From a phage, in assembly GCA_036253035.1 (NCBI GenBank), contig GCA_036253035.1_4123.1: a stretch of 64,000 nucleotides of DNA; one strand, given 5' to 3'. Under the pieces are notes generated by a model that saw nothing but the letters and a program-made list of their open reading frames with translations, had not been told where the DNA came from and made no database searches. The stretch's first letter is position 1; every line of letters starts with the position of its first letter. This document shows, in pieces, positions 913-18,838 of the stretch. Position numbers and translations under genes: made by a program.

Positions 913-1455
913 TCATACATTAACAACTTTATCGATGTAATCTTCTAACATATCAATATATATGGTATTGGTTCTAACTAAAAGGTATGCAAATCCAGAG
1001 AACTCCTGTGTATAATGCTTTACAGCGTACATACAACGAAGCTTATCATTGTCATACATTGTACTGTACTGAAACAAACTCTCGTCTGATAGCTCTAATA
1101 ACGCTTGGGCTTCACTTCTCGTGAACTTCATAGGGTCATGTACTGCATCACAAAAACAAACCTGTGTCTCGCTATTGAAACCCTGTGATAGATATATACC
1201 TTCACACTCGGAACGCACCGATACGGCATTATAACTATGTGTTGCCCCCATCATATCTGAACTCAAAACTAAAATCAACCCATTTTTATTTTTAATCAAC
1301 AAATCTGACTTAAGGGATTTGATCTCCGTATGGGAAATATCACCAAATCTTCCGGGAACCTCAAACTTATCAACGTTGTATACAATCTTTTGTACTTGCT
1401 CTTTTAAACGCTTAATTGCACTTCTGTCTTTTTCTAATGTATCTAATAAACTCAT
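913..1455 (-). CDS. hypothetical protein, EEFFQ-motif paralog family
   Basis: Motif ESLFQYSTMYDND; start moved to internal ATG (MSLLDT) preceded by AAGGAAAG, which removes overlap with upstream gene. Confidence 0.55.
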   Translation of the reverse strand: MSLLDTLEKDRSAIKRLKEQVQKIVYNVDKFEVPGRFGDISHTEIKSLKSDLLIKNKNGLILVLSSDMMGATHSYNAVSVRSECEGIYLSQGFNSETQVCFCDAVHDPMKFTRSEAQALLELSDESLFQYSTMYDNDKLRCMYAVKHYTQEFSGFAYLLVRTNTIYIDMLEDYIDKVVNV

Positions 1456-1465
1456 TGTACTTTCC

Positions 1466-1807
1466 TTACATATTTGTATCGAACAATACGGAACTGCGAA
1501 CGTCATTGATCGACAATTCATGTACATATATATTTTGTCTGAACAAAGGAACTAATTGAACTAAACTTTGTTGCATAATAATATGCATATGTACATTGTC
1601 ATATGCCGTTTCGTATTGGAAACGTGCTGCTTCATCTTCTATGAAATTAGGAACTTGGACTGGATTTTCAAAATTTGTTCTTGAACTGAACTGCACATCA
1701 TTGTCCTGTACTTTAATACCATATGCATTATCATCATCATATACATCTAATTCAATTAAACTACCATCACTTTTTATGTTTACCACACAAACCGAAAATC
1801 GACTCAT
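1466..1807 (-). CDS. hypothetical protein, EEFFQ-motif family (divergent)
   Basis: Track ORF; motif ARFQYETAYDN resembles family core. Confidence 0.5.
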   Translation of the reverse strand: MSRFSVCVVNIKSDGSLIELDVYDDDNAYGIKVQDNDVQFSSRTNFENPVQVPNFIEDEAARFQYETAYDNVHMHIIMQQSLVQLVPLFRQNIYVHELSINDVRSSVLFDTNM

Positions 1808-2319
1808 AAACCTATTTCCTCTAAATCTTTGACAAATGTATCATAATCCGATAATGACAAAAATATGTCTGTACTGATGTTCTGACGTAATGTATTAAAC
1901 AAATTATGTACCTGTAATAAATCAGGTGAATAAATCAGGGATTGCTGGAAATACGATTCTTCTGTATCTAATATATCCCTGCACTCAATTTCACGAACTC
2001 GTTGGTATATTGAATTTAATAATACATTTTCATCTTTGAGCATTGGAAGGTATCGGATGTACATGTTCTCCATCAACTCATCTTGGATTGAACCCCTGAA
2101 CTGCAACACGTATTCAAAACACATCACTACATCTTGTAGGTAATTGGCACTGTACTGATTACTATACACGATTTTATGACAACTGAACTCGGAATCATTT
2201 CTGAACCAATTGTTACCCTCTTTCCTGTACTTATGACTAAGCTTCCCATCCTCCAACGCTCGAATAAACTTCATAATGTTAATTGCAAAATCATATGAAT
2301 GATGCTTGTGTTGATGCAT
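1804..2319 (-). CDS. hypothetical protein, EEFFQ-motif family
   Basis: Motif EESYFQQSLIYSPD; 4-nt overlap with downstream gene. Confidence 0.6.
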   Translation of the reverse strand: MHQHKHHSYDFAINIMKFIRALEDGKLSHKYRKEGNNWFRNDSEFSCHKIVYSNQYSANYLQDVVMCFEYVLQFRGSIQDELMENMYIRYLPMLKDENVLLNSIYQRVREIECRDILDTEESYFQQSLIYSPDLLQVHNLFNTLRQNISTDIFLSLSDYDTFVKDLEEIGL

Positions 2320-2327
2320 TTTTTACC

Positions 2328-2522
2328 TCAATTCTGTCCGAAAAAATAACCAAAATGTTTAAAGCAAGAAAGCATTACTATGTTCATCACTCTATCATCA
2401 AATTCATCTTGTGTTTCTGCACATAATGTTTCACTGATATTCATATGTAATAATTCAAGCTGGAAACTATCGGTGAACCAATCAAACTTACGGTATTTTT
2501 GTTTAATATCAATTATAAGCAT
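2328..2522 (-). CDS. hypothetical protein (64 aa)
   Basis: Track ORF fitting gap between flanking genes. Confidence 0.4.
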   Translation of the reverse strand: MLIIDIKQKYRKFDWFTDSFQLELLHMNISETLCAETQDEFDDRVMNIVMLSCFKHFGYFFGQN

Positions 2523-2523
2523 A

Positions 2524-3147
2524 CTATATATCCAACCCTTTTACAACATCTACGAAATGTTCAAACACTTCTTTTGAAAAATAACCTCCTTCACAAAAAA
2601 GCATACTAAACGGTGGCAGCATGTCCGATAACTCTTTAGCTAAATTGATTTCTGCTCTTAACTCTTGAACATCAATGATATCATGTACTAAAGATAATTG
2701 AAACATGAATGCATCTACATCTTCATTCATTTCTGAATTGTAATATAACTCTTCAGGGAATTTGTCGGTTTCGTAATAATAAAAAACTTTATTGTTGAAC
2801 ACACCACTAATAGGAACATCATTTTCATCTTTCTTTGAAATGTTTGTTTCCCATGACTCGATGTTATTAGGAACAAAAAAATCATAGGCTGATTTAGAAC
2901 CCTGTACTGAATCCAACTTTATTCCATAATATTCCGTATCCATGTATTTCTGCTGCAATGTAATACCACGTGTACTGACATTCACTTGGAATATATCATC
3001 TTTATCTGGAACACTAAATGGAATACATAACACTGAATTCTCAGGGTATTTGGCAATGAATGCATCCAGCACTTTATTAAGCACTGGAATGGCAATTTTA
3101 CTGTACTGCATCAAATCATACATTTTAATTCTGGTCATATCATTCAC
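2524..3147 (-). CDS. hypothetical protein, EEFFQ-motif family
   Basis: Motif MFQLSLVHDIIDV. Confidence 0.6.
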   Translation of the reverse strand: MNDMTRIKMYDLMQYSKIAIPVLNKVLDAFIAKYPENSVLCIPFSVPDKDDIFQVNVSTRGITLQQKYMDTEYYGIKLDSVQGSKSAYDFFVPNNIESWETNISKKDENDVPISGVFNNKVFYYYETDKFPEELYYNSEMNEDVDAFMFQLSLVHDIIDVQELRAEINLAKELSDMLPPFSMLFCEGGYFSKEVFEHFVDVVKGLDI

Positions 3148-3667
3148 CTGTGTATGTTTTCACCCTTAGCGATTCAAAATCCCATACATCACTGATTGTA
3201 CCATTGTGCCTGTAATCATAATATTCTACTAATACATTATACAATAACTTCAACGATACAAATTCATGATTCCACGGAGCTTTATTCTCATGAACACATT
3301 TGGTGATATAAGGTATAATATATAAACTAAACAACACTAATGGTGAATGTATACATTGCATTTGAAAATATTCTTCTTCTTGCATACAATGTTCAGGAAT
3401 AATTAGATCATAATGTGTCTCAAATAAATGTAAACCTATTGTGGTTTTTTTCGTATCACATGCGTACCATATTGTACTATCCGAAATAAATGGAATGATA
3501 CCATTATTGTTTGCAATGTACATCATATGGTAAGAGCGATTTGTCTTGTTAAATATCTCGATACTTTCGATATTACTACAAATCATGTATTCAAGACAAT
3601 CAATGATCTTATCTTTAAATGCACCAATTTCATTGAATGTCATTGATTTCTGCACGTCACTGCTCAT
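3140..3667 (-). CDS. hypothetical protein, EEFFQ-motif family
   Basis: Motif EEEYFQMQCIHSPL. Confidence 0.6.
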   Translation of the reverse strand: MSSDVQKSMTFNEIGAFKDKIIDCLEYMICSNIESIEIFNKTNRSYHMMYIANNNGIIPFISDSTIWYACDTKKTTIGLHLFETHYDLIIPEHCMQEEEYFQMQCIHSPLVLFSLYIIPYITKCVHENKAPWNHEFVSLKLLYNVLVEYYDYRHNGTISDVWDFESLRVKTYTGE

Positions 3668-4206
3668 ATGTTCTCCTTAAAAAAATTCAAATACTCTTCA
3701 TTGAAAGCATATGTATCATCTTTTTTGTTATGCACCACATAATCATAAAGAGCTATGAATGCAGGGATTATGATCTTACATGATTTATTATTGTATTTGT
3801 ACTGCTCCAAATCAACGGTATTCAATTTAGCAATAAGCATAGCAACAAAGATATCTTCATGGCGGTGTACTGTACTGTACTGAAAATATTCATCCTCTCC
3901 AATATCAGGATGATATAACGGTATATCCAAATTATTACGAATTGACATTTTATATTTTTGTAATGCAGCTAAATGCATGAACCACAATCTATCTTCATTG
4001 AAATATGGAAAAATAATTTGGTCTGTGCTAACAAAAATTTCCTCATTTTTATCGTATTCCACAAGAGGTGCATACATTTTATTTTTTGCAGATCTAATAA
4101 TTAAATTAAAAATATAATGAATCTTATGAACTGCACTTGATGCATCTTCGTATGTACTTGGGATTATGAAACTCACTATATGTTCTCCTTTAAAATGATT
4201 ACACAT
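3664..4206 (-). CDS. hypothetical protein, EEFFQ-motif family
   Basis: Motif EDEYFQYSTVHRHE; start moved to internal ATG (MCNHF) to avoid 80-nt overlap; alternative GTG start with AAAGGAG RBS 30 nt further downstream. Confidence 0.5.
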   Translation of the reverse strand: MCNHFKGEHIVSFIIPSTYEDASSAVHKIHYIFNLIIRSAKNKMYAPLVEYDKNEEIFVSTDQIIFPYFNEDRLWFMHLAALQKYKMSIRNNLDIPLYHPDIGEDEYFQYSTVHRHEDIFVAMLIAKLNTVDLEQYKYNNKSCKIIIPAFIALYDYVVHNKKDDTYAFNEEYLNFFKENI

Positions 4207-4258
4207 GATAACAGCTTTGCACTTCTTTGTCAATACCAAAACGAAAAAAGCCCATATC

Positions 4259-4765
4259 TTACGATACAGGCGTGCTGGGAATGTTGATTTGGATTTCATT
4301 GTACAAATCATCAATATATAGACATGAAAAAAACACACTATCTTTTAATATATTGTTGTGATAAAGCATTTTAAATACTACATAAAAAAATAAATCAATA
4401 TCATCATGGACTAAATTCTGTTGAAACCACCACTCTTCCGTTAAATCTTCGGCATTAAAATCATCAGGAACTACAAGGGATGACATATCACCATCTTTTG
4501 TGTAATCAAACCACATGTCGTCATTCGGATAACGTTCATGCTTCTCTGGGTAACAATTGCTGGGATTAAATGTTAAAATATTAAACCCCGTAGAGCAACG
4601 TTCTTTGTTTAGAAATGTATTATTCCATACCTGATATTTTTCACCAACATCAAGCTCTTCTGTTACTGATTTTATTGCACATAATGTACTGTATATTGTT
4701 TCTATCTTGTGAACAAATTTAAAGGCAGCATCTAAGCTGAACTCTAAATCATACATGTACTGCAT
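4259..4765 (-). CDS. hypothetical protein, EEFFQ-motif family
   Basis: Motif TEEWWFQQNLVHDDIDL. Confidence 0.6.
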   Translation of the reverse strand: MQYMYDLEFSLDAAFKFVHKIETIYSTLCAIKSVTEELDVGEKYQVWNNTFLNKERCSTGFNILTFNPSNCYPEKHERYPNDDMWFDYTKDGDMSSLVVPDDFNAEDLTEEWWFQQNLVHDDIDLFFYVVFKMLYHNNILKDSVFFSCLYIDDLYNEIQINIPSTPVS

Positions 4766-5085
4766 AAAATTACCTCAACTAAAGCAAGGACTGTATTGAA
4801 TTCCAAATTACTTGTAATTCCTTGAAGGTACATATACTTTGCTACTACATATTTCTGTACTAAATTATAATTATTAAATTCCTCAAAATTGTAATTTAGA
4901 ACAAAATCTGTACTCAAAAATAACTTATGCATCTCTAATGCACTTTGATAATACGCGTACAACTCACTGATATCAATACTGGTTAAATTATATTGTTCAT
5001 ATCTATGATATGGGATGGCTTCAATTTCAATACTATAAAACCATTCTCTTAACTTATTAATATCAAATGTATTATTCAGCTTCAT
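4744..5085 (-). CDS. hypothetical protein
   Basis: Track ORF; partial family resemblance (YNFEEFNNYNLV). Confidence 0.5.
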   Translation of the reverse strand: MKLNNTFDINKLREWFYSIEIEAIPYHRYEQYNLTSIDISELYAYYQSALEMHKLFLSTDFVLNYNFEEFNNYNLVQKYVVAKYMYLQGITSNLEFNTVLALVEVILCSTCMI

Positions 5086-5629
5086 AACTCAATACCTCCA
5101 TTAAACACTCATACACACCATCAATCGCATAAGCACAAAAATTGAAATTAATTTTGTGATTCTTGTGTAATGGACTATTGTGTACTGTACTAATAAGGAC
5201 ATTATAAAACAACAAACGCACTGGCACAAGCAATGAACCTTGGAAAAATTCTTCCTCTGATTTATATGTATTGTACTCTATTGTTTTATTCGTTTCTGTA
5301 TCATATTTTACCATTACTAACGGGGCATTTTTATTATACCATGTGTACTCTAAATCATTCTTTCCAATAACAGCACCAGGTGCGAAATCCAAAAGACCAA
5401 TAACACTACTGGCATTTGGGGTATCAGGTGTATTGAATCGTTTATCAAAATGACTCGTGCACGCAATATATGTATTGTACTTCGATGGAATAATACCAAT
5501 ACATTTGTGAATATGACGCTTGTAATCTTTCTGTGCATTATATAAGGCTGCAACAATACAAGCTAACTTTTGTCCCATAAGGATTGCATTAGCGTAGGTG
5601 TACTGAATTTCATTGTACTTCCAGATCAT
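5072..5629 (-). CDS. hypothetical protein, EEFFQ-motif family
   Basis: Motif SEEEFFQGSLLVPV. Confidence 0.6.
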   Translation of the reverse strand: MIWKYNEIQYTYANAILMGQKLACIVAALYNAQKDYKRHIHKCIGIIPSKYNTYIACTSHFDKRFNTPDTPNASSVIGLLDFAPGAVIGKNDLEYTWYNKNAPLVMVKYDTETNKTIEYNTYKSEEEFFQGSLLVPVRLLFYNVLISTVHNSPLHKNHKINFNFCAYAIDGVYECLMEVLSYEAE

Positions 5630-5927
5630 GGAACATCCCCATTTTACCTGAATTATTTTGGATTATGAATTCATTAACCGCTTTCTGAATATTCCTTAAT
5701 AATAGCAAATCAAATCCATTTGTATCAAGCACAAATTGCATTTGGAAAAATTCTTCTTCTGATAATGTATTAAAATCGACAAAATTATCTATTATTACGT
5801 CATTATCCAAATGTGCCATGTACCATGTATTTCTATCGTGTCGTTTAATAAAATTCCATCCATCTGAATAATCGGATTCTAATTCTACATATACCCCTGA
5901 TACTGTATTAAGCATTTTATACTTCAT
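5610..5927 (-). CDS. hypothetical protein, EEFFQ-motif family
   Basis: Motif LSEEEFFQMQFVLD. Confidence 0.6.
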   Translation of the reverse strand: MKYKMLNTVSGVYVELESDYSDGWNFIKRHDRNTWYMAHLDNDVIIDNFVDFNTLSEEEFFQMQFVLDTNGFDLLLLRNIQKAVNEFIIQNNSGKMGMFHDLEVQ

Positions 5928-6462
5928 AACTATATCCTTGCATTAATAAATCATAAACTACATGGACTAAATTCAATTGAATATAAAATTTTAAACCTTT
6001 AATTAATGGATTCAAATGCATTGTACTGAATAACATTAGATACATCATCTCATGCGGTTTTGTGATTAATGATTTTTGAAATACTTCAGCTTCATCATAA
6101 GGGTCTATGAACTGAAATTTGTCTTCATCATAATTTGTATTGGAATGCTGATATATAAAATAATCATCATTGGTATTGTACCACAAATACCCTTCGAATC
6201 CTGTACTAACACCTTTGGTCAATGGGGATGCTGATACTGGATTTGAACTGATTAATGCACCTACATCAACCTTTCCTGATGCATCACTGTTCTCGATTTC
6301 AATATCAATGTAATTCCTTGCGATAACCTCTGTTAATGTCAAATATAAACTACCACCTGTCCTCTGACTCAGGATTCCATCTATCTGCGATATAGGATGG
6401 TTGTTATTTAGGATAAGCATTATTGTACTAATCTTGTGTGCTAATAATTCTATCTCATTCAT
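5917..6462 (-). CDS. hypothetical protein, EEFFQ-motif family
   Basis: Motif DEAEVFQKSLITKP. Confidence 0.6.
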   Translation of the reverse strand: MNEIELLAHKISTIMLILNNNHPISQIDGILSQRTGGSLYLTLTEVIARNYIDIEIENSDASGKVDVGALISSNPVSASPLTKGVSTGFEGYLWYNTNDDYFIYQHSNTNYDEDKFQFIDPYDEAEVFQKSLITKPHEMMYLMLFSTMHLNPLIKGLKFYIQLNLVHVVYDLLMQGYSYEV

Positions 6463-6470
6463 AATTCGCC

Positions 6471-6662
6471 TTATGGATTCGGGTGCAATAAATGATCTTG
6501 GTATATTAAATGCTCTTGCGATATTGTACTCAAATAATAACTAAAATTTTCAATACCACCATTTAAATGAATTTTATAATATAAATTTATACTCACCAAT
6601 AAAGAATCATTTAAAACATTTATCGTTTTTGTATTTTTGTGCTCTTTGTGCGGTGTGTGCAT
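6471..6662 (-). CDS. hypothetical protein (63 aa), uncertain
   Basis: Track ORF in AT-rich gap; ATG preceded by AAGAGAAG; low-complexity composition. Confidence 0.3.
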   Translation of the reverse strand: MHTPHKEHKNTKTINVLNDSLLVSINLYYKIHLNGGIENFSYYLSTISQEHLIYQDHLLHPNP

Positions 6663-6810
6663 TAATGTTCTTCTCTTAAAAAGCGTTTGATGGCATAATC
6701 TAAATAAAATTCATAACACATACTATCTCTGTTCTTTATCCATATTTTGTAATCGGATTTTATATTACGCAACAAATAATTTGTATTAATTGTGTAATAA
6801 TCTAATCGCC

Positions 6811-7197
6811 CTAATCGTTCCATTTAATAGGATACTCCTTTCCTTGTACTATGTACGACAAAATCCATCCGTAATGAATAGGATGATTTTTGTCTGAATC
6901 AGGAATAAAATATAAAGCTGTACTTGGATTATGACTGAATAAATCTTTATTGTCAAATGTAAAATGTGATAATATAATTTTCCTTGTAATTGGACGAATA
7001 ACATTCTTAACACTGAACTCTGATCCTTTGTATTTTTCCGATAATTCAAATAATGCATCTGTAATTAAATCACTGAACTCTTGAATTACAAAATTCTGAT
7101 AAAATGCATTAATCTCTTTAAACTCTGTATACATTTCACTTCTTGTATTCAAAAGGAATATTACTTGTTTAAGATCCTGTACTATTGTTGGGTTCAT
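6811..7197 (-). CDS. hypothetical protein (128 aa)
   Basis: Track ORF; preferred over alternate-frame 6849..7058. Confidence 0.5.
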   Translation of the reverse strand: MNPTIVQDLKQVIFLLNTRSEMYTEFKEINAFYQNFVIQEFSDLITDALFELSEKYKGSEFSVKNVIRPITRKIILSHFTFDNKDLFSHNPSTALYFIPDSDKNHPIHYGWILSYIVQGKEYPIKWND

Positions 7198-7435
7198 ATT
7201 TGTTTATCTCATTATGTACCTTAAGCATCAAAATTTGCATATGAATTTTTTGTTCAAGGTGCTTGATAAATTTCTGTGCCATTTCTTCTTGTTCCGATGT
7301 ACCAAGATAAAATAACAGATTAAATTCTGATAATCGCAAAGAAAAATCTTCATCACCACCCTTTAAACAAAAATCCCTGTACTTTGTAGCGTACAAATAT
7401 TGGTTTACTTTTTTATAATACCCTGTGTTTTGCAT
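7169..7435 (-). CDS. small protein, LGTNYQE-family outlier
   Basis: Motif FYLGTSEQEEMAQKFIKHL matches the 9.8-15.4 kb array family. Confidence 0.5.
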   Translation of the reverse strand: MQNTGYYKKVNQYLYATKYRDFCLKGGDEDFSLRLSEFNLLFYLGTSEQEEMAQKFIKHLEQKIHMQILMLKVHNEINKYEPNNSTGS

Positions 7436-7620
7436 ACGATCTCCGTTCGCAATGAACTTATATAATAATGAATGTATTGTTCCTGTGAACGTGTTCCAAG
7501 AAAAATAAACATATCAAACTCTGTTCTTTTTAAATTCAATGCATCTTTTGTTAAACTAGTACTGAATTCCCTGTACTTTTGGGTCTTCCATTCTTGATTA
7601 ATTGTCTTGTACATTGACAT
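7405..7620 (-). CDS. small protein, LGTNYQE-family outlier
   Basis: Motif IFLGTRSQEQYIHYYISSL. Confidence 0.5.
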   Translation of the reverse strand: MSMYKTINQEWKTQKYREFSTSLTKDALNLKRTEFDMFIFLGTRSQEQYIHYYISSLRTEIVCKTQGIIKK

Positions 7621-7918
7621 ATATGGTTCTTCCTTGTGTGCCTTGTATTAGCCTATCAAACACATCGAGCATCACTTTTTGAATATTAATTAGTACTGGC
7701 ATCGTGCAAATATCAATGTCATATACTAAGCTGTACTGGAATAATTCATCTTCCTGCATTTGTACTAAATTAGGTAAAGGATAATTGTCTGCCTCTTCAT
7801 CCTGGTACTTGAAATGCATAACACCATCCTTTTTGTACAATAGAATGTCAAGATCACCTAACTCATCAGCATAACCAAATATACATACATTAGATGTTTT
7901 TGCTATATTAAATTTCAT
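7598..7918 (-). CDS. hypothetical protein, EEFFQ-motif family
   Basis: Motif QEDELFQYSLVYDIDI. Confidence 0.55.
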   Translation of the reverse strand: MKFNIAKTSNVCIFGYADELGDLDILLYKKDGVMHFKYQDEEADNYPLPNLVQMQEDELFQYSLVYDIDICTMPVLINIQKVMLDVFDRLIQGTQGRTIYVNVQDN

Positions 7919-8724
7919 GATTTATATTGTTCCTTAAAAACACCACAATGATAATTTTTATTGTATTGTGTAATACTATAATCACACGGCATTGTCCCGC
8001 ACGAAGCTCTGTGTTTTAAACGTTCCAATACCTTATCGTAATCTTTACTGAAAATGCCATTTTCATTAGGCGTAGCAATCATTAATGCTTGCTCATATAA
8101 ATCTTTTGTTCTTGTTGAACCATGCGAATGTTTGTTAAAATAAAATACATATTCAACTTCCCAATTACTTCTTAAATAGGATATTCCGTAATTGGTAATC
8201 ATATAATAATGTAAATCCTTGTAATAATTGAATGTCTTATCTGTATTAATCAAAATATATGAAGAACTATCATTGTCCTTAATAACAAATAAACGACCAA
8301 TCTTATTTTCTTTATCTTTAACTAATTGTCTAATTTCATCACCTTCTTCAAATTTACGATGCACTTCAATTACAGATTTAGCAATCCCAGTCTGTACTAA
8401 AGATTCATATGCTGCGTACATAAAATCACTTACATGACCTAAACCAACATCTTCTTTTCTTGGTGTCTCTGTTGTATTGACAAACATATTCAATAACTTT
8501 TCAATTGAAAAATCAGTACTGCAATCTTTATTAATTTTAATTTTTTCTCGAATCTCTTCCTTTAATGCATTAATATATTGCTCTTGTGCTGCTTCCTGAT
8601 AATTTGTACCAAGATATAAACTCAAGGCAACTGAACCTTTGTAAGATGCTGATTTCTTTAAATCACCAGAACTAAATTTTTTCATAATCAAATTGGTTGC
8701 TTCAGATTCTGTTAAAAATTTCAT
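7915..8724 (-). CDS. hypothetical protein with N-terminal LGTNYQE-family module fused to larger C-terminal domain
   Basis: N-terminal 60 aa contains LYLGTNYQEAAQEQYINALKEEI; 269 aa total. Confidence 0.6.
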   Translation of the reverse strand: MKFLTESEATNLIMKKFSSGDLKKSASYKGSVALSLYLGTNYQEAAQEQYINALKEEIREKIKINKDCSTDFSIEKLLNMFVNTTETPRKEDVGLGHVSDFMYAAYESLVQTGIAKSVIEVHRKFEEGDEIRQLVKDKENKIGRLFVIKDNDSSSYILINTDKTFNYYKDLHYYMITNYGISYLRSNWEVEYVFYFNKHSHGSTRTKDLYEQALMIATPNENGIFSKDYDKVLERLKHRASCGTMPCDYSITQYNKNYHCGVFKEQYKS

Positions 8725-8832
8725 ATCATTGTACCTTATCTTAAAATTGAATAGGTAAACATGTTAACACTATTCAAATGGAGTGTCAACATTGATCTTC
8801 ATTCTGTGAATATTAAATTTCATATTCTTCTC

Positions 8833-9183
8833 TTATATGTGGAATTCACATACGTGTTGAACAAAATTCTTTGGAAGATGACAATGTGCAATCATCTGCT
8901 GTTGCACTTTCTTCATATCTTCTAATGTAAAACCTAAAGAATCATCGTGTACTAACATGTACTGAAACTCTTCTTCTTCAGAGATAGAACATAAATTCGG
9001 TACTGAAATTGTATTTGTTTTTCTTGCACCTAATTTCCAATGAAAAGAATTATTACATTTTCTGTACTCAAATATCTTCAACCCAGAACCCGTATTAAAA
9101 TCAGCTACTACAATGTAACATGAATTCTTACGTACAATACAATTGAATTTACGCATTATCTCCACCTCACTCCGTCTGTACAA
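8833..9183 (-). CDS. hypothetical protein, EEFFQ-motif family
   Basis: Motif SEEEEFQYMLVHDDSL. Confidence 0.55.
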   Translation of the reverse strand: MYRRSEVEIMRKFNCIVRKNSCYIVVADFNTGSGLKIFEYRKCNNSFHWKLGARKTNTISVPNLCSISEEEEFQYMLVHDDSLGFTLEDMKKVQQQMIAHCHLPKNFVQHVCEFHI

Positions 9184-9401
9184 GAGTACTGGTACGTTGT
9201 CGTTAGGGTAGGGACCATGTTCGTAATTGGCATGTTGTTAACAATAACCGTAACAGGCATAAGAATCGTCTCTACTCTACTCTGTCCTGTCCTTGTGCAA
9301 TTCATCTTCTGCATTTCATCTGAATCCATGAAATACAATACAAATGGTGCAATCCCAAGAACAATACACAAGACGATAAGGAAATTTAAAAAATTCAACA
9401 T
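9156..9401 (-). CDS. hypothetical protein with hydrophobic N-terminus
   Basis: ATG start; own promoter-like TTGACA-N17-TATAGT just upstream; N-terminal MLNFLNFLIVLCIVLGIAPFVLYF. Confidence 0.45.
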   Translation of the reverse strand: MLNFLNFLIVLCIVLGIAPFVLYFMDSDEMQKMNCTRTGQSRVETILMPVTVIVNNMPITNMVPTLTTTYQYSCTDGVRWR

Positions 9402-9430
9402 AATCTGTACCCTATGATTAACGTTGGTGC

Positions 9431-9459
9431 ACTATATCAGTAATGAAAAGTACTGTCAA
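9431..9459 (-). promoter_or_regulatory. sigma70-like promoter (TTGACA-N17-TATAGT)
   Basis: Minus-strand -35 at 9454-9459 and -10 at 9431-9436, upstream of gene 9156..9401. Confidence 0.45.
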
Positions 9460-9491
9460 GAACATTTGTACTCTCAGTACTATCAGAACTC

Positions 9492-9833
9492 TTAATACTC
9501 AATAATGTGTTCTTCATAATCACCATTAGGCTCCTGTTTAGATTCTTTCATTAGTACTATCATCTTATGTACTAATGGCATAGGGAACTCTAAATCCCAT
9601 ACTAATGATTCCTGGAAGTATTCCTCTGGTGATAAAGTACTTAAATCTTCAATGTCAATGTGTTCGTACATATTATTTTCGTAATTAGCAAAAGAGATAT
9701 ATAAACCTCCTGTTAAACTGTAAGTAACTGTGAATGGTTTACCTTTGTAGTCCATTACATCTTTACATAGACTACTTTTAACGTATATATTTTCATACGA
9801 TATGTATACCCTGAGTTGAATTTTAGTTTTCAT
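9492..9833 (-). CDS. hypothetical protein, EEFFQ-motif family
   Basis: Motif SPEEYFQESLVWDLEF; start abuts stop of last array gene. Confidence 0.55.
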   Translation of the reverse strand: MKTKIQLRVYISYENIYVKSSLCKDVMDYKGKPFTVTYSLTGGLYISFANYENNMYEHIDIEDLSTLSPEEYFQESLVWDLEFPMPLVHKMIVLMKESKQEPNGDYEEHIIEY

Positions 9834-10083
9834 TTTTATATTTCTTCGCTTTCTGAGTTTTGGAATTAATCAATTCAATTAAAGTAATTAAGTACAACTT
9901 CAAATAATAATCTTGTTCATTCGTACCTAATGATACAAATAACTTATGCTCATAAATTAATACCTGTTTCACTACAAAGGGACACTTAATCCTCTGTATA
10001 GGTTTAAGTAAATGATAGTACTTATTAAATCTATGATACATTTCTAATTCTGTCAGTACTTTCATATTAAACACATACTCCAT
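9823..10083 (-). CDS. LGTNYQE-family small protein
   Basis: Core VSLGTNEQDYY; tandem array member. Confidence 0.6.
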   Translation of the reverse strand: MEYVFNMKVLTELEMYHRFNKYYHLLKPIQRIKCPFVVKQVLIYEHKLFVSLGTNEQDYYLKLYLITLIELINSKTQKAKKYKNEN

Positions 10084-10288
10084 TAGCAGTAGCAGTACTT
10101 AAAGCACTCAAATACCTCTGTACGGCTTGCTCTTGATGATCTGTACCTAAAAGTATATACACCCATAATTCATTGTAGTGTACATCTTCTGTATAAGGGT
10201 TGTTGTAACTTTTTGATAATATAGCATCAAATTCAGATGCATAATCCCTTGTGAACTTAAACATATCTTGTTGTGTTATGATTCTCAT
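10067..10288 (-). CDS. LGTNYQE-family small protein
   Basis: Core LLGTDHQEQ; start overlaps upstream stop. Confidence 0.65.
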   Translation of the reverse strand: MRIITQQDMFKFTRDYASEFDAILSKSYNNPYTEDVHYNELWVYILLGTDHQEQAVQRYLSALSTATANGVCV

Positions 10289-10500
10289 AACTTTTCCTGT
10301 ATAAGCTTCTTAAGTATTTCTATGTGTGAATTAACAGTTCTTTCTTGATGCTGTGTTCCTAAGAGTGTCAGTACTATCATCTCTGAACGCAAAAGATTTT
10401 TTTCAAGTTCACTTATATCAGTTCTTGAATCAAGTGCCATATATTTGTGATTATTCTTCCTGAATAGTGCCAAGTACTCTTGATTTGATATTATCTTCAT
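10285..10500 (-). CDS. LGTNYQE-family small protein
   Basis: Core LLGTQHQER; 4-nt start/stop overlaps both sides. Confidence 0.65.
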   Translation of the reverse strand: MKIISNQEYLALFRKNNHKYMALDSRTDISELEKNLLRSEMIVLTLLGTQHQERTVNSHIEILKKLIQEKL

Positions 10501-10712
10501 AGTTTACTTTGAATTTCCATTAAAAGTGCTCTAATATGCTCATTGACAAATCTCTCTTGGGAATCTGTGTCTAGGGTGAGAAGCATTCTTAATTCTGAAC
10601 CTCTGATGGTATATTCTAAATCATTCTTTGATTCTCGCATAAGTTTCTGAAAGGATGAGAAGTGTAATCCCATGAGTTCAATGTATTCTGCTGTTCCTAG
10701 TGGTTTTGGCAT
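10497..10712 (-). CDS. LGTNYQE-family small protein
   Basis: Core TLDTDSQER; coupled. Confidence 0.65.
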   Translation of the reverse strand: MPKPLGTAEYIELMGLHFSSFQKLMRESKNDLEYTIRGSELRMLLTLDTDSQERFVNEHIRALLMEIQSKL

Positions 10713-10924
10713 TTTAGTTCAATCGCTCGTTTAAGTGTATTAATATAATCATTAATATTGCATTCTTGATAGTTAGTCCCTAGTGTAGCTTGAACATAGA
10801 TTTCATTTCTCTTAATAATTTTATCCATATCTGGTATATCTGATGTGTTAATAACAAACAACTTCAAAAACAATCCATTTATAATTGTTAGGTATTCTTC
10901 GTCGGTAATCATTCGCATTTGCAT
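10697..10924 (-). CDS. LGTNYQE-family small protein
   Basis: Core TLGTNYQEC; coupled. Confidence 0.65.
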   Translation of the reverse strand: MQMRMITDEEYLTIINGLFLKLFVINTSDIPDMDKIIKRNEIYVQATLGTNYQECNINDYINTLKRAIELKCQNH

Positions 10925-11130
10925 CTTCTCAGTACTGATTCTTTAAGTTCATCAATGTAGTACTCTACATATTCTTCTTGTAGGTTTGTTCCGAGATGTA
11001 ACAGTACTCTTAAATCTGCTCTCAGTACTTCTTTATCATCTTCATCTATATCAGACAGTGTTATGTTTAAGAATTTACTTGAACTCTCTATAAGTAATAT
11101 TACTGAATCACCTTTGCTTAAAATTTTCAT
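10909..11130 (-). CDS. LGTNYQE-family small protein
   Basis: Core HLGTNLQEE; coupled. Confidence 0.65.
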   Translation of the reverse strand: MKILSKGDSVILLIESSSKFLNITLSDIDEDDKEVLRADLRVLLHLGTNLQEEYVEYYIDELKESVLRRCKCE

Positions 11131-11338
11131 AATCTCTTTTTGCTTTCCTCGCCAAAAGGTACATATACGATTCTTCGTATTGTGCTTGGTAGTTTGTGTT
11201 TAAGAGTCGAAACAACTTCTGTTCTGCTAGAACTAGTTGCTTATCTTCATAACAACGATAGCGTATCAACTTTTTGTATTCGATGTTGATTACATCCATT
11301 ACTATAAGCCCATGTTCATCATCTGTCAAGTGTTTCAT
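11108..11338 (-). CDS. LGTNYQE-family small protein
   Basis: Core LLNTNYQAQ; coupled. Confidence 0.6.
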   Translation of the reverse strand: MKHLTDDEHGLIVMDVINIEYKKLIRYRCYEDKQLVLAEQKLFRLLNTNYQAQYEESYMYLLARKAKRDYENFKQR

Positions 11339-11564
11339 GTATCTTTTCCTTAATAGTGATTTTAAGAGATTTAATTATACGTTCAACGTGATACTCCTGC
11401 CTATCAGTTCCAAGAAGGTATGGTAGTGCTTGGAATAGAGCTTCCGCATTCTTTTCCTCTGGGGTTTGGTTTGGGTTGTGAGGAAGTTGATTTGTATATC
11501 TCTTGGCACTAACTAATCTCTCGACGTATTCATTATATGTTAAGTATATCATTTCATTTTGCAT
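11319..11564 (-). CDS. LGTNYQE-family small protein
   Basis: Core LLGTDRQEY; N-terminus MQNEMIY identical to next copy. Confidence 0.65.
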   Translation of the reverse strand: MQNEMIYLTYNEYVERLVSAKRYTNQLPHNPNQTPEEKNAEALFQALPYLLGTDRQEYHVERIIKSLKITIKEKIHETLDR

Positions 11565-11784
11565 TTACTTTTTCCTTAATACTCATCATAAGATGTTCAA
11601 TCATATTTTGAACCATAAATTCTTGTTTATCAGTTCCAAGAACGTATGGTAACTTCTGAAACAATACATTTGCAGATACTTCATATATTGATTGATTTGG
11701 AACGAACTTAAGATTAATGTTTTTTGTTTTTAACATCTTCTCTTGAAATTCTTCATTCGTTATGTATATCATTTCATTTTGCAT
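11554..11784 (-). CDS. LGTNYQE-family small protein
   Basis: Core VLGTDKQEF; N-terminus MQNEMIY. Confidence 0.65.
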   Translation of the reverse strand: MQNEMIYITNEEFQEKMLKTKNINLKFVPNQSIYEVSANVLFQKLPYVLGTDKQEFMVQNMIEHLMMSIKEKVNAK

Positions 11785-12000
11785 TTACATTCTCTCATAT
11801 ATATTTTGGGTTAAAAGGTCAATCCAGATTTCCACATATCGTTGTTGGTGTTGCGTCCCTAACAGTACACCCAACTTAGCTTCACACTCTAATAACAATC
11901 TGGTTTTGTATGGTAGACTTTGAAATCCTATTGTAGCATCTAATTTGGAAATTGCATAGTTGATGCGTATGAACCTTTCTTGTAATGTGATGTTAATCAT
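11785..12000 (-). CDS. LGTNYQE-family small protein
   Basis: Core LLGTQHQQR. Confidence 0.65.
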   Translation of the reverse strand: MINITLQERFIRINYAISKLDATIGFQSLPYKTRLLLECEAKLGVLLGTQHQQRYVEIWIDLLTQNIYERM

Positions 12001-12259
12001 TCCTAGTACACCTTAGTGGGCGGGTCATTTGATGAAAGTACAGCTTACCTCTGATTTCCATTAGTAATTCATTTAATACGAGTTGTACCTCTTGTTCTTG
12101 ATAGTTAGTTCCTAGCATAGCACCCATTATCAACTCACGTATCATAATCATCTTCTTGTCGTGTTTGATTTCTTCGCTGTAATAGATTTCGGTGCGTTTA
12201 GTTGAGATTTTTGCACGTCGCTCGTTATATTCATCTTTACTTAAATTGATCATTTTCAT
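11993..12259 (-). CDS. LGTNYQE-family small protein
   Basis: Core MLGTNYQEQ; start moved to ATG of MKMINLSKDEY (track start is TTG within upstream gene). Confidence 0.6.
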   Translation of the reverse strand: MKMINLSKDEYNERRAKISTKRTEIYYSEEIKHDKKMIMIRELIMGAMLGTNYQEQEVQLVLNELLMEIRGKLYFHQMTRPLRCTRND

Positions 12260-12260
12260 G

Positions 12261-12491
12261 TTAATTACCCTTACATTTATTTTCAATACTATTCATGAGT
12301 TCTTTAAGATAGTTTTTTACCTTACCTGCCTGATAGTTCGTCCCTAGAAAGTTGCACAACTCTGCTTCTATGATTTTGATTTTCCTGATATCAGGCTTCA
12401 ATCTTTTGTTATTGAATATTTGAATCCTTATATCTCTGGATGCATTTAAACGTTTTTGATATTCATGGTAAGTTAAATTAATCATTTTCAT
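12261..12491 (-). CDS. LGTNYQE-family small protein
   Basis: Core FLGTNYQAG; N-terminus MKMINL. Confidence 0.65.
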   Translation of the reverse strand: MKMINLTYHEYQKRLNASRDIRIQIFNNKRLKPDIRKIKIIEAELCNFLGTNYQAGKVKNYLKELMNSIENKCKGN

Positions 12492-12706
12492 TTACGTTTA
12501 ACCTCTCGCTGGAGGGAATCAATTAACATCAGTACCGCATTCTCTTGATAGTTTGTTCCTAAGACTGAAAGCATCTTTATCTCATTTACTAAAATCAACT
12601 TCTTTGAGGGTTCAATAATGTGACTATCATAAACGGCCTTACGTGCTGGATAAGTTTTCGCCAGTATAACATAAAATTCGTCTTTACTTAAATTAATCAT
12701 TTGCAT
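12488..12706 (-). CDS. LGTNYQE-family small protein
   Basis: Core VLGTNYQEN; N-terminus MQMINL. Confidence 0.65.
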   Translation of the reverse strand: MQMINLSKDEFYVILAKTYPARKAVYDSHIIEPSKKLILVNEIKMLSVLGTNYQENAVLMLIDSLQREVKRK

Positions 12707-12915
12707 TTACTTTTAACCTCTTTCTGTAGTGCATCGATCCATAGGTCTACATAAGTGTGTTGATAGTTTGTGCCTAAGAGTGTTAAGACATAAAGTTCAG
12801 TTATCATTATATACTTTCGTTCTTCGGCAATTTTTTTATCCTTTTGAATCATTCTCCTTCTGATTCCACAGGTTTGTAGAAGCTTAACATATTCGAAACC
12901 TATTAATTTTCTCAT
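12697..12915 (-). CDS. LGTNYQE-family small protein
   Basis: Core LLGTNYQHT; start moved to ATG of MRKLIGFEY abutting upstream stop. Confidence 0.6.
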   Translation of the reverse strand: MRKLIGFEYVKLLQTCGIRRRMIQKDKKIAEERKYIMITELYVLTLLGTNYQHTYVDLWIDALQKEVKSKCK

Positions 12916-13127
12916 TTTAAACTCACCGACTTCAGACGTAAGCTGCTTAACCATGCGTCTATGTAGATACTTTGATAGTTTGTCCCAATGAAGAGTAATA
13001 GCTTCATTTCAGCTATTATAACACATCGGTCCGCTTCTGCAATAGAATTATCTAAAAAAGTCCACGAGACTTTTCCTTGTATAGTTCTTAACCTATTGTA
13101 ATACTCATGCTCAGTCAGGATTTTCAT
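12912..13127 (-). CDS. LGTNYQE-family small protein
   Basis: Core FIGTNYQSI; start moved to ATG of MKILTEHEY, preceded by GGAGA. Confidence 0.6.
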   Translation of the reverse strand: MKILTEHEYYNRLRTIQGKVSWTFLDNSIAEADRCVIIAEMKLLLFIGTNYQSIYIDAWLSSLRLKSVSLK

Positions 13128-13374
13128 TCTCACGTCTCCATATCTCGGTTCTAATGTGTTGGCAGTGTGCATCGATGAACATATCTATAGATTTGGTAAT
13201 TGCTGTTTTATCAGTGCCTGTCATCAGTACAAGCATCTCTGCCTCACTATGAATTAAACGCATGATATCATAGGGTAATATTTCAGATACTGTATCATAG
13301 TGTTTTTGTCCTAGATTCTGTAATAGTTTAAAATACATTTTGTGATTTAGTCTTTGTTGCATTGTCTCTTCCAT
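13111..13374 (-). CDS. LGTNYQE-family small protein (divergent)
   Basis: Same size and position in array; core degenerated to LMTGTDKTA; start uncertain. Confidence 0.5.
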   Translation of the reverse strand: MEETMQQRLNHKMYFKLLQNLGQKHYDTVSEILPYDIMRLIHSEAEMLVLMTGTDKTAITKSIDMFIDAHCQHIRTEIWRRENENPD

Positions 13375-13598
13375 TCTCTTTGGGCTTGGCGGGTTTTATC
13401 TGATATTTCGTTTCTCAGTGCAGAGATATATCGTTGAGTGAACAGTTCTTGATAGTTTGTTCCAATGAATTTCATAAGATAAACATCACCGTTGATAACA
13501 TCCAATTCAGGTGCACCATGTAATGCATAGTTTTTTCTAAGGGTGTTAAGAAGAGAGAAGAGGGCAGTCTGATACTCAGTGCTTGATAAAGTCTTCAT
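13347..13598 (-). CDS. LGTNYQE-family small protein
   Basis: Core FIGTNYQEL; start moved to ATG of MKTLSSTEY. Confidence 0.55.
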   Translation of the reverse strand: MKTLSSTEYQTALFSLLNTLRKNYALHGAPELDVINGDVYLMKFIGTNYQELFTQRYISALRNEISDKTRQAQREWKRQCNKD

Positions 13599-13833
13599 AT
13601 TTTTCCACAATTCGTTCATTTAGTTTTATCTGTATAAGATCCATTAGTTGTTCAAGATAATCGGTACAATATTTCTCTTGATATTGGGTTCCCACAAAGT
13701 ACAGCAACCATAGCTCATGAACTTTAACTTTCATCTCGTTCCATGAAAGTTCACCGTCATCGTAGATTAGTCTTGCTTCTGGGGTGAGCTTTCGAATTCT
13801 AAGTGAATATTCATCGTTCGTCAAGTGTTTCAT
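13576..13833 (-). CDS. LGTNYQE-family small protein
   Basis: Core FVGTQYQEK; N-terminus MKHLTNDEY. Confidence 0.65.
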   Translation of the reverse strand: MKHLTNDEYSLRIRKLTPEARLIYDDGELSWNEMKVKVHELWLLYFVGTQYQEKYCTDYLEQLMDLIQIKLNERIVEKYEDFIKH

Positions 13834-13988
13834 TTACATTTATCCCTTATTAGATTTGTGAGTGCAACTATGTGTTCATGGACATAAAAATTCTGATGAG
13901 AAGTTCCAAGAAAGTACAGCATCCATCCCTCACTCTGCTCGACTTTTAGTTTAGTATCGAGTTGGTCAGATATGTTAATGAAAACCAT
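13830..13988 (-). CDS. LGTNYQE-family small protein, N-terminally shortened (52 aa, below track cutoff)
   Basis: Manually translated MVFINISDQLDTKLKVEQSEGWMLYFLGTSHQNFYVHEHIVALTNLIRDKCK; start and stop overlap both neighbours. Confidence 0.5.
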   Translation of the reverse strand: MVFINISDQLDTKLKVEQSEGWMLYFLGTSHQNFYVHEHIVALTNLIRDKCK

Positions 13989-14212
13989 TAGTTCTTTTCC
14001 TTTCTTTCTATTTGTTTCATAAGAACATTGATATACTCACCCGCAAACCTATTCTGATACTGCGTCCCCATGAATTCCAACATCCATACTTCAGCAACCT
14101 TTTCTTCAATTTCAGTCCATTGTAAGTACATCATAGTGAAGTAAATGGTGTTCTCTTTTTTTCTGGCACTCTTAGCACGGGCCTCGTATTCAAAGTTATT
14201 AATGATGTTCAT
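13988..14212 (-). CDS. LGTNYQE-family small protein
   Basis: Core FMGTQYQNR. Confidence 0.65.
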   Translation of the reverse strand: MNIINNFEYEARAKSARKKENTIYFTMMYLQWTEIEEKVAEVWMLEFMGTQYQNRFAGEYINVLMKQIERKEKN

Positions 14213-14426
14213 TACATTTGTCCATTATGTAATTAGTGAGTGCAACGATGTGCTCATGAACATAGCCTTCTTGGAAGTTAGTCCCCAGTACAGCCAACAT
14301 GCGAATCTCGGTGGTGTTTATCCTGTGTTCCCTTATAGATAAACATTCTTTTTGTGGAAGTGTAAAATATTTGTTTATTACAGCAATGATAATTTTATTC
14401 TTCTCTATATTACTTAAATGTTTCAT
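14199..14426 (-). CDS. LGTNYQE-family small protein
   Basis: Core VLGTNFQEG. Confidence 0.65.
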   Translation of the reverse strand: MKHLSNIEKNKIIIAVINKYFTLPQKECLSIREHRINTTEIRMLAVLGTNFQEGYVHEHIVALTNYIMDKCNEHH

Positions 14427-14638
14427 AGTTTGCTCCTGACGTATTTCTCAAGAGATGACAAATACTTTTCCTCATAATACTCCTGATAGTCTGTTCCCAA
14501 GAATGCACCCAAAAGTATTTCATTTTCCAATACCTCGGCTAAGTTTAAATCAGAAGTCTCTTCGTATATTATGAGGATTTCAAGTTGTCTGGCAGCGATG
14601 CGTTCAGTATATTGATATGATTTTTCTAGAATAATCAT
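14423..14638 (-). CDS. LGTNYQE-family small protein
   Basis: Core FLGTDYQEY; near-duplicate of next copy (MIIL...). Confidence 0.65.
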   Translation of the reverse strand: MIILEKSYQYTERIAARQLEILIIYEETSDLNLAEVLENEILLGAFLGTDYQEYYEEKYLSSLEKYVRSKL

Positions 14639-14847
14639 AGTTTACTCTTAATGTGGTTCTGAAGTGCAATAAAGTATTCTCCTACATAATACTCCTGAAA
14701 GTCTGTATCCAAAAATGCACCCATAAGTAAATCCTTCTCCATTACCCTTGATAAGTTAAGATCTGCATTTGAAAGGTATATAAGTAATATTTCAGCCTGG
14801 ACAGATTTAAAACGTTTCTTATATTCTTCAGGTGTTAATATAATCAT
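14635..14847 (-). CDS. LGTNYQE-family small protein
   Basis: Core FLDTDFQEY. Confidence 0.65.
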   Translation of the reverse strand: MIILTPEEYKKRFKSVQAEILLIYLSNADLNLSRVMEKDLLMGAFLDTDFQEYYVGEYFIALQNHIKSKL

Positions 14848-17352: not shown

Positions 17353-17363
17353 ATTCTTTTTTG

Positions 17364-18836: not shown

Positions 18837-18838
18837 AC

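Follow-up and report, generated by a model that had tools for sequence, protein, structure and literature searches.

A large and extremely divergent family of small F-Q motif proteins in Rak2-like jumbo phages

The locus and its genes

The stretch of DNA analyzed here (hereafter, the window) comprises 64,000 nucleotides of phage sequence (NCBI GenBank assembly GCA_036253035.1, contig GCA_036253035.1_4123.1), and the genes of interest are a set encoded on its minus strand, mostly between positions 913 and 9833, whose products share a short acidic and aromatic motif centered on Phe-Gln (hereafter, the F-Q motif). The 913-9833 region is AT-rich (G+C content of ~31%) and densely packed with short minus-strand genes that often overlap. 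Matches to the queried 9.1 kb spanning this region were found in 34 Asteriusvirus-type jumbo phages of E. coli and Salmonella; identity to Escherichia phage 121Q was 98% over 86% of the query, and identity to phage UB was 93% with a coverage of 100%. Every gene under these matches is annotated as 'hypothetical protein'. The window is DNA of an Asteriusvirus (121Q/PBECO4-like, Rak2-like) jumbo coliphage.

A total of 15 minus-strand genes in the window encode proteins with the shared motif, 13 of them in the 913-9833 region and two dispersed at 37769-38440 and 57271-57933. A sequence-only reading of the same DNA had proposed such a family and quoted ten motif strings, all of which were recovered in minus-strand open reading frames (ORFs) where it had placed them; both of its dispersed copies belong, the first with F-M in place of F-Q. 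A strict motif pattern matched 12 times in the 579 six-frame ORFs of the window, compared with a mean of 0.036 matches (maximum of 1) in 500 shuffles and none in reversed sequences, and a looser pattern matched 15 times where 1.8 matches were expected. Twelve strict matches against an expectation of 0.036 exclude chance as an explanation. The profile search that had been suggested as a check gave the same answer: in leave-one-out searches each of the 15 members ranked first among the window ORFs not used in training (E of 5e-10 to 0.019), and the best non-member ORF reached an E of 0.04 or worse. An independent profile built from 66 members in another phage genome (fam66) recovered the same 15 window genes, and neither profile identified additional members in the window.

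Pairwise BLASTP similarity among the window members is mostly weak, with alignments anchored on the motif. Significant neighbor pairs are 5072-5629 with 5917-6462, its closest paralog (E 7e-7), and 7598-7918 with 8833-9183 (E 8e-8). In all 15 proteins the motif lies 39-73 residues from the C-terminus and follows an N-terminal part of ~55-180 residues. Similarity is not confined to the motif itself, as an upstream beta-hairpin (e.g., LLYKKDGVMHFKY and WYNTNDDYFIYQ) and downstream helices also align. AlphaFold models of two members, built from shallow alignments, share the order sheet, helix alpha-A, helix alpha-B, and strand. The F-Q proteins are a single homologous paralog family.

Several mechanically called ORFs begin too far upstream, and likely starts at 1455, 3138, 3643, 4206, and 9156 were assigned from PHROG alignments, orthologs, and the 121Q annotation. 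In what follows, paired E-values refer to the leave-one-out and fam66 searches, respectively, and ratios of nonsynonymous to synonymous substitution rates (dN/dS) are relative to phage TH47. The long-form member 913-1455 (motif LSDESLFQYSTMYD at 1051-1092; E 4e-4 and 3e-15; phrog_30243; dN/dS of 0.39) occupies an ORF that extends to 1527 and likely starts at Met25 (1455). Next to it, 1466-1807 is a short form with the most divergent motif (EDEAARFQYETAYD at 1598-1639; E 0.0075 and 1e-7; dN/dS of 0.22). Two long forms follow: 1804-2319 (DTEESYFQQSLIYS at 1927-1968; E 2e-5 and 3e-14; dN/dS of 0.18), which matches phrog_28680 with cross-hits to phrog_9317 and phrog_12674, and 2524-3138 (DVDAFMFQLSLVHD at 2680-2721; E 0.019 and 6e-11; phrog_31297; ortholog P0041), for which a GTG-initiated ORF extends to 3147 and the likely start is at 3138. 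Long form 3140-3643 (MQEEEYFQMQCIHS at 3344-3385; E 4e-7 and 2e-19; phrog_33775) lies in an ORF extending to 3667. For long form 3664-4206 (IGEDEYFQYSTVHR at 3862-3903; leave-one-out E 3e-6, with a fam66 match), the mechanical ORF extends to 4338, and the protein likely begins with MCNHFK at 4206; the alignment to phrog_30978 runs from residue 45, and the orthologs P0034 and P0043 begin with MCNHF or MRNHF. Long form 4259-4765 (LTEEWWFQQNLVHD at 4403-4444; E 9e-6 and 2e-17; dN/dS of 0.24) has its stop codon overlapped by a terminator-like hairpin at 4271-4250.

Farther along the region are long form 5072-5629 (KSEEEFFQGSLLVP at 5222-5263; E 1e-5 and 3e-18; phrog_19795), the 105-residue short form 5610-5927 (LSEEEFFQMQFVLD at 5724-5765; E 2e-5 and 5e-11; orthologs P0046 and P0049), and the 181-residue long form 5917-6462 (YDEAEVFQKSLITK at 6058-6099; leave-one-out E 5e-7, with a fam66 match; orthologs P0055-P0076), one of the two members modeled with AlphaFold. 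The other modeled member is the 106-residue short form 7598-7918 (MQEDELFQYSLVYD at 7718-7759; leave-one-out E 5e-10; phrog_13866). Short form 8833-9156 (ISEEEEFQYMLVHD at 8944-8985; leave-one-out E 8e-6, with a fam66 match; ortholog P0037) lies in a TTG-initiated ORF that extends to 9183 and likely starts with MRKFN at 9156; the gene is without a counterpart in the 121Q annotation and has a TH47 ortholog with 93% amino acid identity. The last member of the region is the 113-residue short form 9492-9833 (LSPEEYFQESLVWD at 9594-9635; E 0.007 and 2e-15; ortholog P0038). Of the two dispersed members, 37769-38440 encodes a basic protein of 223 residues (isoelectric point, pI, of 8.8) with a Lys-rich N-terminus (LQEEELFMYSTVID at 37880-37921; E 3e-4 and 4e-8); Met replaces the near-invariant Gln, ortholog P0044 retains F-M, and the gene sits inside an unrelated array of ~60-residue genes. 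The other, 57271-57933, encodes a basic protein of 220 residues (pI of 9.15) and is the weakest member (ISSDLMFQYSLIHK at 57391-57432; E 0.009 and 4e-5).

Genes in the 913-9833 region that are not members are 4744-5085, 6471-6662, 6811-7197, 7169-7620, 7915-8724, and 9156-9401. In addition, a 64-residue minus-strand ORF at 2328-2522 carries the motif-like FTDSFQLELLHM ~40 residues from its C-terminus; no family profile gave it a significant score, and it is possibly what remains of a truncated family member. This ORF is an annotated gene in 121Q and has a dN/dS of 0.22 relative to TH47.

Copy number, distribution, and divergence

The number of copies per genome was estimated by an iterated profile search (E of 0.001 or better) of 3008 ORFs from Escherichia phage ECO103 4-12-1, a close relative with a complete genome sequence of 351,992 bp. 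The search converged on 66 ORFs, and reversed or shuffled decoys gave no hits in any round. The divergent paralog family with dispersed copies described from the sequence alone is real, yet its size, ~66 copies per genome in this relative, had been understated. The 66 copies are all on one strand and encode 103-220 amino acids (median of 150); together they take up 30.4 kb (8.6%) of the genome. Clusters are found at 28-36 kb (7 copies), 41-49 kb (9 copies), and 266-295 kb (43 copies), and seven copies are scattered. The window corresponds to 285.4 to ~350 kb of ECO103 4-12-1 and contains the final 13 genes of the 43-gene array along with two scattered copies. Five adjacent copies at 281546-283879 of ECO103 4-12-1 (L010:36549-38870), outside the window, have W-D/G-S-E-E-Y-Y-F-Q in common and are 35-58% identical; these are the most recent tandem duplicates of the family.

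Divergence among the copies is extreme: only 75 of 2145 paralog pairs (3.5%) are detected by BLASTP at E <1e-3, and the closest pair is 58% identical. Because of this divergence, PHROGs splits the family and genome papers report few paralogs. Nine of 10 members tested matched PHROG families at E of 1e-41 to 1e-144, with 8833-9183 giving a best E of 1.2e-5; the families matched (phrog_12674, 13866, 19795, 22855, 30243, 28680, 31297, 33775, 30978, and 34516) are all of unknown function. Weak cross-hits connect these groups within PHROGs, yet the family is kept there as many unannotated ortholog groups, with neither its unity nor its motif recorded. The RaK2 genome paper reports 'nearly 10%' paralogs without naming families, and the CBB genome paper reports just 22 paralogous ORFs. 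Within the part of the literature covered, a description of the family was absent from the RaK2, CBB, phAPEC6, and Sharanji papers, from jumbo-phage overviews, and from a 2026 jumbo-phage review; this silence of the genome papers is probably due to the extreme divergence of the copies.

Outside the window, 1.84 billion representative proteins were searched exhaustively with a profile; the hits numbered only 26, and all were small proteins apart from one that is spurious. Distant hits retain the motif (TLSEEEYFQYSLVHD, YTEELYFQHSLLYSD, and LQEDELFQMHLVYD). The spurious hit, P0042 (2655 amino acids), is a repetitive trimeric-autotransporter-like adhesin that scores via nine weak repeats, and it was rejected. 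One of the distant hits belongs to an 18-kb metagenomic contig (L002) with a run of at least 20 consecutive members; Salmonella phage 7t3 has ~25 members in a row (genes 0207-0234), and the best tblastn hit was to Erwinia phage Hallingskeid. Foldseek matches in BFVD with E < ~0.1 were exclusively to uncharacterized proteins of Rak2-like phages, namely RaK2 (several), GAP32, Yersinia phages fHe-Yen9-03/04, Erwinia phage pEa_SNUABM_47, Serratia phage BF, SP27, and PBECO4; by these matches, at template modeling scores of up to 0.64, the long form is linked to more than one paralog in phages such as RaK2 and GAP32. No Pfam family was matched by more than one of 67 members, a sequence profile search of the PDB gave no match, and no convincing fold match was found for the domain. 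Both word-indexed and exhaustive profile searches returned short stand-alone proteins, with no fusions to other domains seen. On this evidence, the F-Q domain is an orphan domain restricted, so far as detected here, to the Rak2-like jumbo phage clade.

Among known systems, a close parallel is the expansion of ~35 zinc-ribbon copies in Bacillus phage G, which Iyer et al. termed 'unprecedented'. Like the F-Q family, it consists of a small stand-alone domain present in many copies in the same genome, largely in tandem arrays, in one phage lineage only and with function unknown. The two differ in that the F-Q family has ~66 copies rather than ~35, in that its domain is without recognizable relatives in Pfam, among PDB sequences, or as a convincing fold match, and in that its copies are so diverged that few pairs can be detected by BLASTP. 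With ~66 copies, or roughly one gene in nine, and with arrays conserved across the Rak2-like jumbo phages, the F-Q family may exceed in size any multigene family so far seen in a bacteriophage.

Selection and evolution of the array

The codons used at the invariant residues of the motif are mixed: Phe is encoded by TTT (8) or TTC (7), Gln by CAG (7) or CAA (7), and Ser by AGY (4) or TCN (6). Relative to TH47 orthologs, dN/dS ranges from 0.18 to 0.40. Synonymous codon variation together with dN/dS below ~0.4 indicates that selection acts on the protein. These data bear on the alternative that what is conserved is the nucleic acid, in the form of a repeated promoter, recombination site, or RNA structure that happens to lie within coding sequence, as might be entertained for a genome that carries many repeated regulatory cassettes elsewhere. 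The near-even split of synonymous codons at invariant residues, with Ser drawn from both of its codon families, and the low dN/dS both speak against it, as does the finding that the cassette sequence is missing from the F-Q array save for one 14-base match. The alternative is scarcely credible, and a repeat at the level of DNA is ruled out by the synonymous codon variation.

Among neighboring genes compared with TH47, dS varies from 0.12 to 1.3 and amino acid identity from 23% to 93%. The array genes are functional, fast-evolving, and mosaic. A 1.2-kb segment at 7915-9183, comprising a 269-residue gene and the member at 8833-9183, has no counterpart in the 121Q annotation; phage UB covers the whole queried region, and TH47 is without 7915-8724 yet has an ortholog of 8833-9156. 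The presence or absence of the genes in this segment indicates that the array gains and loses genes among phages that are >90% identical. In Salmonella phage SD-1_S14, protein P0009 (182 amino acids) joins the ortholog of 4744-5085, in frame, with the C-terminal half of that of 4259-4765, and thus represents adjacent array genes brought together through deletion or recombination. A plausible history is one in which an ancestral gene was copied repeatedly, mostly in tandem, with the copies then diverging until only alpha-A stayed recognizable.

The motif as the predicted start of a helix

A logo of 57 members from three phage lineages, numbered from the near-invariant Gln as position 0, shows L/M/F at -7, T/S/D/N at -6, Glu in 47 of 57 members (82%) at -5, E/D/A at -4, Glu at -3, L/F/Y at -2, Phe in 57 of 57 at -1, and Gln in 56 of 57 (98%) at 0. 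Position +1 is variable, +2 is Ser in 41 of 57 members, +3 is L/T, +4 is V/L/I, +5 is Y/H/L/W, and +6 is D/S. A hydrophobic residue followed by an S/T/D/N N-cap, two arbitrary residues, Glu, and a second hydrophobic residue is the classical signature of a helix N-terminus with a hydrophobic staple and a capping box. The logo conforms to the capping-box and hydrophobic-staple rules, which were reportedly set out by Harper and Rose in 1993 and by Munoz, Blanco and Serrano in 1995.

The AlphaFold models place the motif accordingly. For the short form (7598-7918; predicted local distance difference test score, pLDDT, of 67.7; predicted template modeling score, pTM, of 0.58), the model comprises five strands, a helix at residues 56-65 (EDELFQYSLV), a helix at 73-92, and a final strand, and residues 51-60 form its best-scoring block (pLDDT of 87). 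The long form (5917-6462; pLDDT of 79.4; pTM of 0.80) is modeled as an N-terminal helix, six strands, a helix at 124-131 (EAEVFQKS), a helix at 136-149, a strand at 158-162, and a helix at 163-178. Here, Tyr122 is at N', Asp123 is the N-cap, and block 121-130 has the highest pLDDT of the model (94). In both models the motif helix starts exactly at -5, the first conserved Glu. About three of the four helix faces carry conserved residues that are hydrophobic or small, and only +1, -3, and -4 appear free, a distribution that suggests a helix embedded in the fold.

Taken as a whole, the motif would mark where the best-conserved helix (alpha-A) of an orphan alpha/beta domain begins. Read from N to C, it would comprise a hydrophobic N' residue, an S/T/D/N N-cap, and E-E-E as the first helix turn and capping box, followed by a hydrophobic N4 residue that pairs with N' in the hydrophobic staple and by the invariant Phe and Gln; it would end in a variable and probably exposed residue, Ser, L/T, V/L/I, and an aromatic residue or His. 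Around alpha-A, the predicted fold has an antiparallel sheet of four to six strands before the helix and one or two helices and a strand after it, with long forms carrying an extra N-terminal helix.

The same letters invite a different reading, raised as speculation in the sequence-only reading, in which E-x-x-[YF]-F-Q is the site of a TEV- or 3C-like Gln-specific protease and the proteins are cut after Gln. Proteases of this type bind their substrates as extended strands. The tobacco etch virus (TEV) or potyviral NIa-Pro site, ENLYFQ|(G/S), does share Glu at P6 (82% in the family), Phe at P2 (100%), and Gln at P1 (98%) with the F-Q motif, and Gly at P1' (in 5072-5629) or Tyr at P3 occurs in a few members. 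The other determinants of the TEV site are not kept: P3 is Leu in 21, Phe in 8, and Tyr in 7 of the 57 members, and P1' is Tyr in 22, Gln in 6, and Met in 6 rather than Gly or Ser. Further, Ser is conserved at P2', conservation extends past the presumed cut as far as P7', and the start of the motif is explained by the N-cap and hydrophobic-staple pattern. The presumed scissile bond would lie in the middle of a predicted helix, in the best-predicted part of both models, and the C-terminal piece that cleavage would release is predicted to be part of the same globular domain, to which it adds helices and a strand. By predicted secondary structure and model confidence, therefore, the motif appears to belong to the structured core rather than to a loop, and the proposed processing site is not supported. 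A tblastn search of the complete ECO103 4-12-1 genome with TEV NIa-Pro and human rhinovirus (HRV) 3C sequences gave only noise (E 2.8 and 7.8), so that no cognate protease was found by this search, and in the Sharanji annotation a prohead protease is the sole protease. Cleavage by a TEV- or 3C-like enzyme is very improbable.

In a second proteolytic reading, [L/I/M]-x-E at -7 to -5 marks a site of the T4 gp21 type in internal proteins targeted to the capsid. T4 gp21 cleaves after Glu in L/I-x-E. These phages do encode a T4-like prohead core protease, position -7 is often hydrophobic (L, M, and F being commonest), and position -5 is Glu in most members. A three-residue pattern is low in information, however, and it is fully explained by the hydrophobic staple and N-cap; the site would also fall at the start of a helix inside a folded domain. 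Among the 62 virion proteins of phage phAPEC6, none is a product of the genes from gp348 to gp548, to which the orthologs of the main array, the only members covered, were assigned by genome position (~310-318 kb of 352.6 kb) rather than by direct mapping. Judged from this related phage, the main-array products appear not to be virion components, and capsid-targeted processing is highly improbable.

Possible functions of the F-Q proteins

Twelve of the 15 window members have a pI of 4.2-5.7, are soluble, and are without a catalytic-looking constellation of residues. Sigma-70-like sites scoring 10-11 out of 12 are present in the intergenic gaps at 9459-9431 and 8789-8761, and at least 20 cassettes that pair an early-type promoter with a hairpin are found upstream on the same strand. 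It is proposed that transcripts of the host RNA polymerase (sigma-70-type) give rise to small cytoplasmic proteins, most of them acidic, and that these proteins are not enzymes but form a diversified panel that binds host or phage macromolecules in host takeover or counter-defense. In such a panel, the conserved helix would hold the scaffold, and the variable sheet and termini would set the specificity of each copy. We assign a probability of roughly 0.6 to the combined reading that the motif is the start of the core helix of an orphan domain and that the copies are diversified small intracellular binders.

Several points weigh against this interpretation. The figure of 66 copies comes from ECO103 4-12-1, a relative that is ~92% identical, and not from the genome of the window itself. 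AlphaFold had shallow alignments of 32 and 43 sequences to work from, the short-form model is of only moderate quality, and the burial of Phe, Leu, and Val is deduced from conservation and helix geometry. Promoter-like sites as a class are not enriched (70 found versus 79.6 expected from shuffles), and the promoter candidate at 4233-4205 overlaps the start codon that it would serve, so that conclusions on expression timing are tentative. The binding role itself is suggested by analogy with the expanded small-protein families of large viruses. Finally, Glu at -5 and Gln at 0 are conserved beyond what helix capping alone requires, which lends some probability to the alternative of a shared docking surface.

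That alternative is the main rival to the binder panel, although it is unlikely. In it, the E-E-E-x-F-Q-x-S helix and the C-terminal 40-70 residues form a module that docks onto one common host or phage machine, and the variable N-terminal part picks different cargo, a logic like that of F-box or PRANC adaptors. The fixed distance of the module from the C-terminus, the variable length of the N-terminal part, and the excess conservation of Glu -5 and Gln 0 fit such an arrangement, as does the retention of just the motif segment by at least 60 paralogs in which nearly everything else has diverged. Yet the strand and helix that follow the motif in the long form are integrated with the N-terminal sheet in the model and do not form a separable box, hydrophobic residues are conserved on as many helix faces as would be expected for a buried helix, acidic residues at a helix N-terminus are generic stabilizers, and no candidate partner was identified. 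Poxvirus ankyrin/PRANC families and the BTB, F-box, and ankyrin families of giant viruses likewise combine a variable part with a short conserved C-terminal module and occur in tens of copies per genome. The F-Q family resembles these adaptors of eukaryotic viruses in both respects; it differs in having no homology to them, in that its conserved module is apparently part of one globular domain, and in having no known partner.

A narrower proposal, that Q-x-S-L-[VIL] mimics the bacterial beta-clamp-binding pentapeptide and that the proteins target the host sliding clamp, is highly implausible. The clamp-binding consensus is QL[SD]LF, with QMSLL in MutS as an example, and such motifs work as extended peptides in disordered termini or loops. 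The resemblance consists of Gln, Ser, Leu, and a hydrophobic residue at positions 1, 3, 4, and 5, and the F-Q segment is internal and predicted to be helical and structured; moreover, it is hard to see why at least 60 paralogs would be maintained against a single target.

The binder-panel reading and the docking alternative could also be combined in a more ambitious form, which we regard as rather improbable. Here, the family would be a modular arsenal of adaptors or inhibitors with a new fold, each variable sheet seizing a different host or defense protein and the invariant helix coupling all of them to one machine.

Neighboring arrays and other features of the window

The F-Q array is one of several repetitive features in the window. 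A second paralog family on the minus strand, at 7169-14850, encodes proteins of ~71-88 amino acids in which an L-G-T-(N/D)-x-Q-E core precedes an amphipathic helix (e.g., FLGTSEQEEMAQKFIKHLEQ and LLGTDHQEQAVQRYLSAL). It has at least 16 copies, including those at 9823-11130, that adjoin and are interleaved with the F-Q family, and in 7915-8724 an N-terminal L-G-T-x-x-Q-E module is fused to a C-terminal part of 200 amino acids. One member of this second family, 10067-10288, has a dN of 0.114 and a dS of 0.035 relative to TH47; it is the sole tested gene with a ratio above 1 (3.2), and the gene is short, so this value may be noise. A third minus-strand array, at 36256-39893, consists of ~15 genes of ~60-80 amino acids, many of which begin with M-H-K-E-Y-Y and end with L-I-Y-R-Y; the dispersed F-Q member 37769-38440 interrupts this array midway.

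Upstream of the F-Q array on the same strand (16390-35608) are at least 20 copies of an intergenic cassette of 75-90 nucleotides. In order, the cassette comprises an A-tract, AGTACTTGCAA (also in the form AAAAAGTACTTGCAA), 17 nucleotides, GTATAAT, a G-rich hairpin with compensatory changes, and a Shine-Dalgarno sequence; examples are at 16462-16390, 19150-19070, 26183-26091, 31465-31393, and 33950-33875, and on the metagenomic contig at L002:1744-1833. Conservation of the cassette is 85-89% across Salmonella phages Munch and 7t3, Klebsiella phage fENko-Kae01 (within the terminal repeat), and a metagenomic contig. The arrangement is like that of the promoter-early-stem-loop cassettes of T4-type phages.

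On the plus strand, 39978-57290 encodes ~15 paralogous beta-propeller proteins of ~300-400 amino acids that are RCC1-like, with 53025-53972 being Kelch-like. By position and size, these appear to correspond to the genes for the phAPEC6 'DNA condensation protein' (gp003-010, gp549, and gp551), the products of which are virion components. A 2-kb stretch at 34308-36256 is nearly free of ORFs and gave no match to Rfam, and no tRNA genes were found in the whole window. The GC skew changes sign at ~36 kb, and the switch from minus- to plus-strand genes comes later, at ~39.9 kb. Lastly, the 213-residue product of 19285-19926 (-) has sub-threshold kinase matches (Pkinase, E 0.003; PK_Tyr_Ser-Thr, E 0.0017).

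Implications for Rak2-like jumbo phages

Rak2-like jumbo phages (121Q, PBECO4, phAPEC6, RaK2, and GAP32) are widely isolated and have been proposed for therapy and biocontrol, and more than 80% of their genes are without annotation. The recognition of the F-Q family resolves ~66 hypothetical genes, or 8.6% of the DNA of a 352-kb genome, as copies of a single orphan domain, and the motif and profile together allow dozens of genes per genome to be annotated at once. It also removes the tempting, unsupported idea of TEV-like, polyprotein-style processing in these phages. The F-Q domain may represent a new fold, and the small, soluble, non-virion proteins of the family make up a tractable set that can be screened for roles in host takeover or anti-defense. 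Should the arsenal described above prove to be true, its common machine could be a host protease, RNA polymerase, or a phage hub, and the F-box/PRANC logic of large eukaryotic viruses would have its counterpart in phages. For the genomes themselves, the family offers a partial account of growth, through the accretion of paralogs followed by their extreme divergence.

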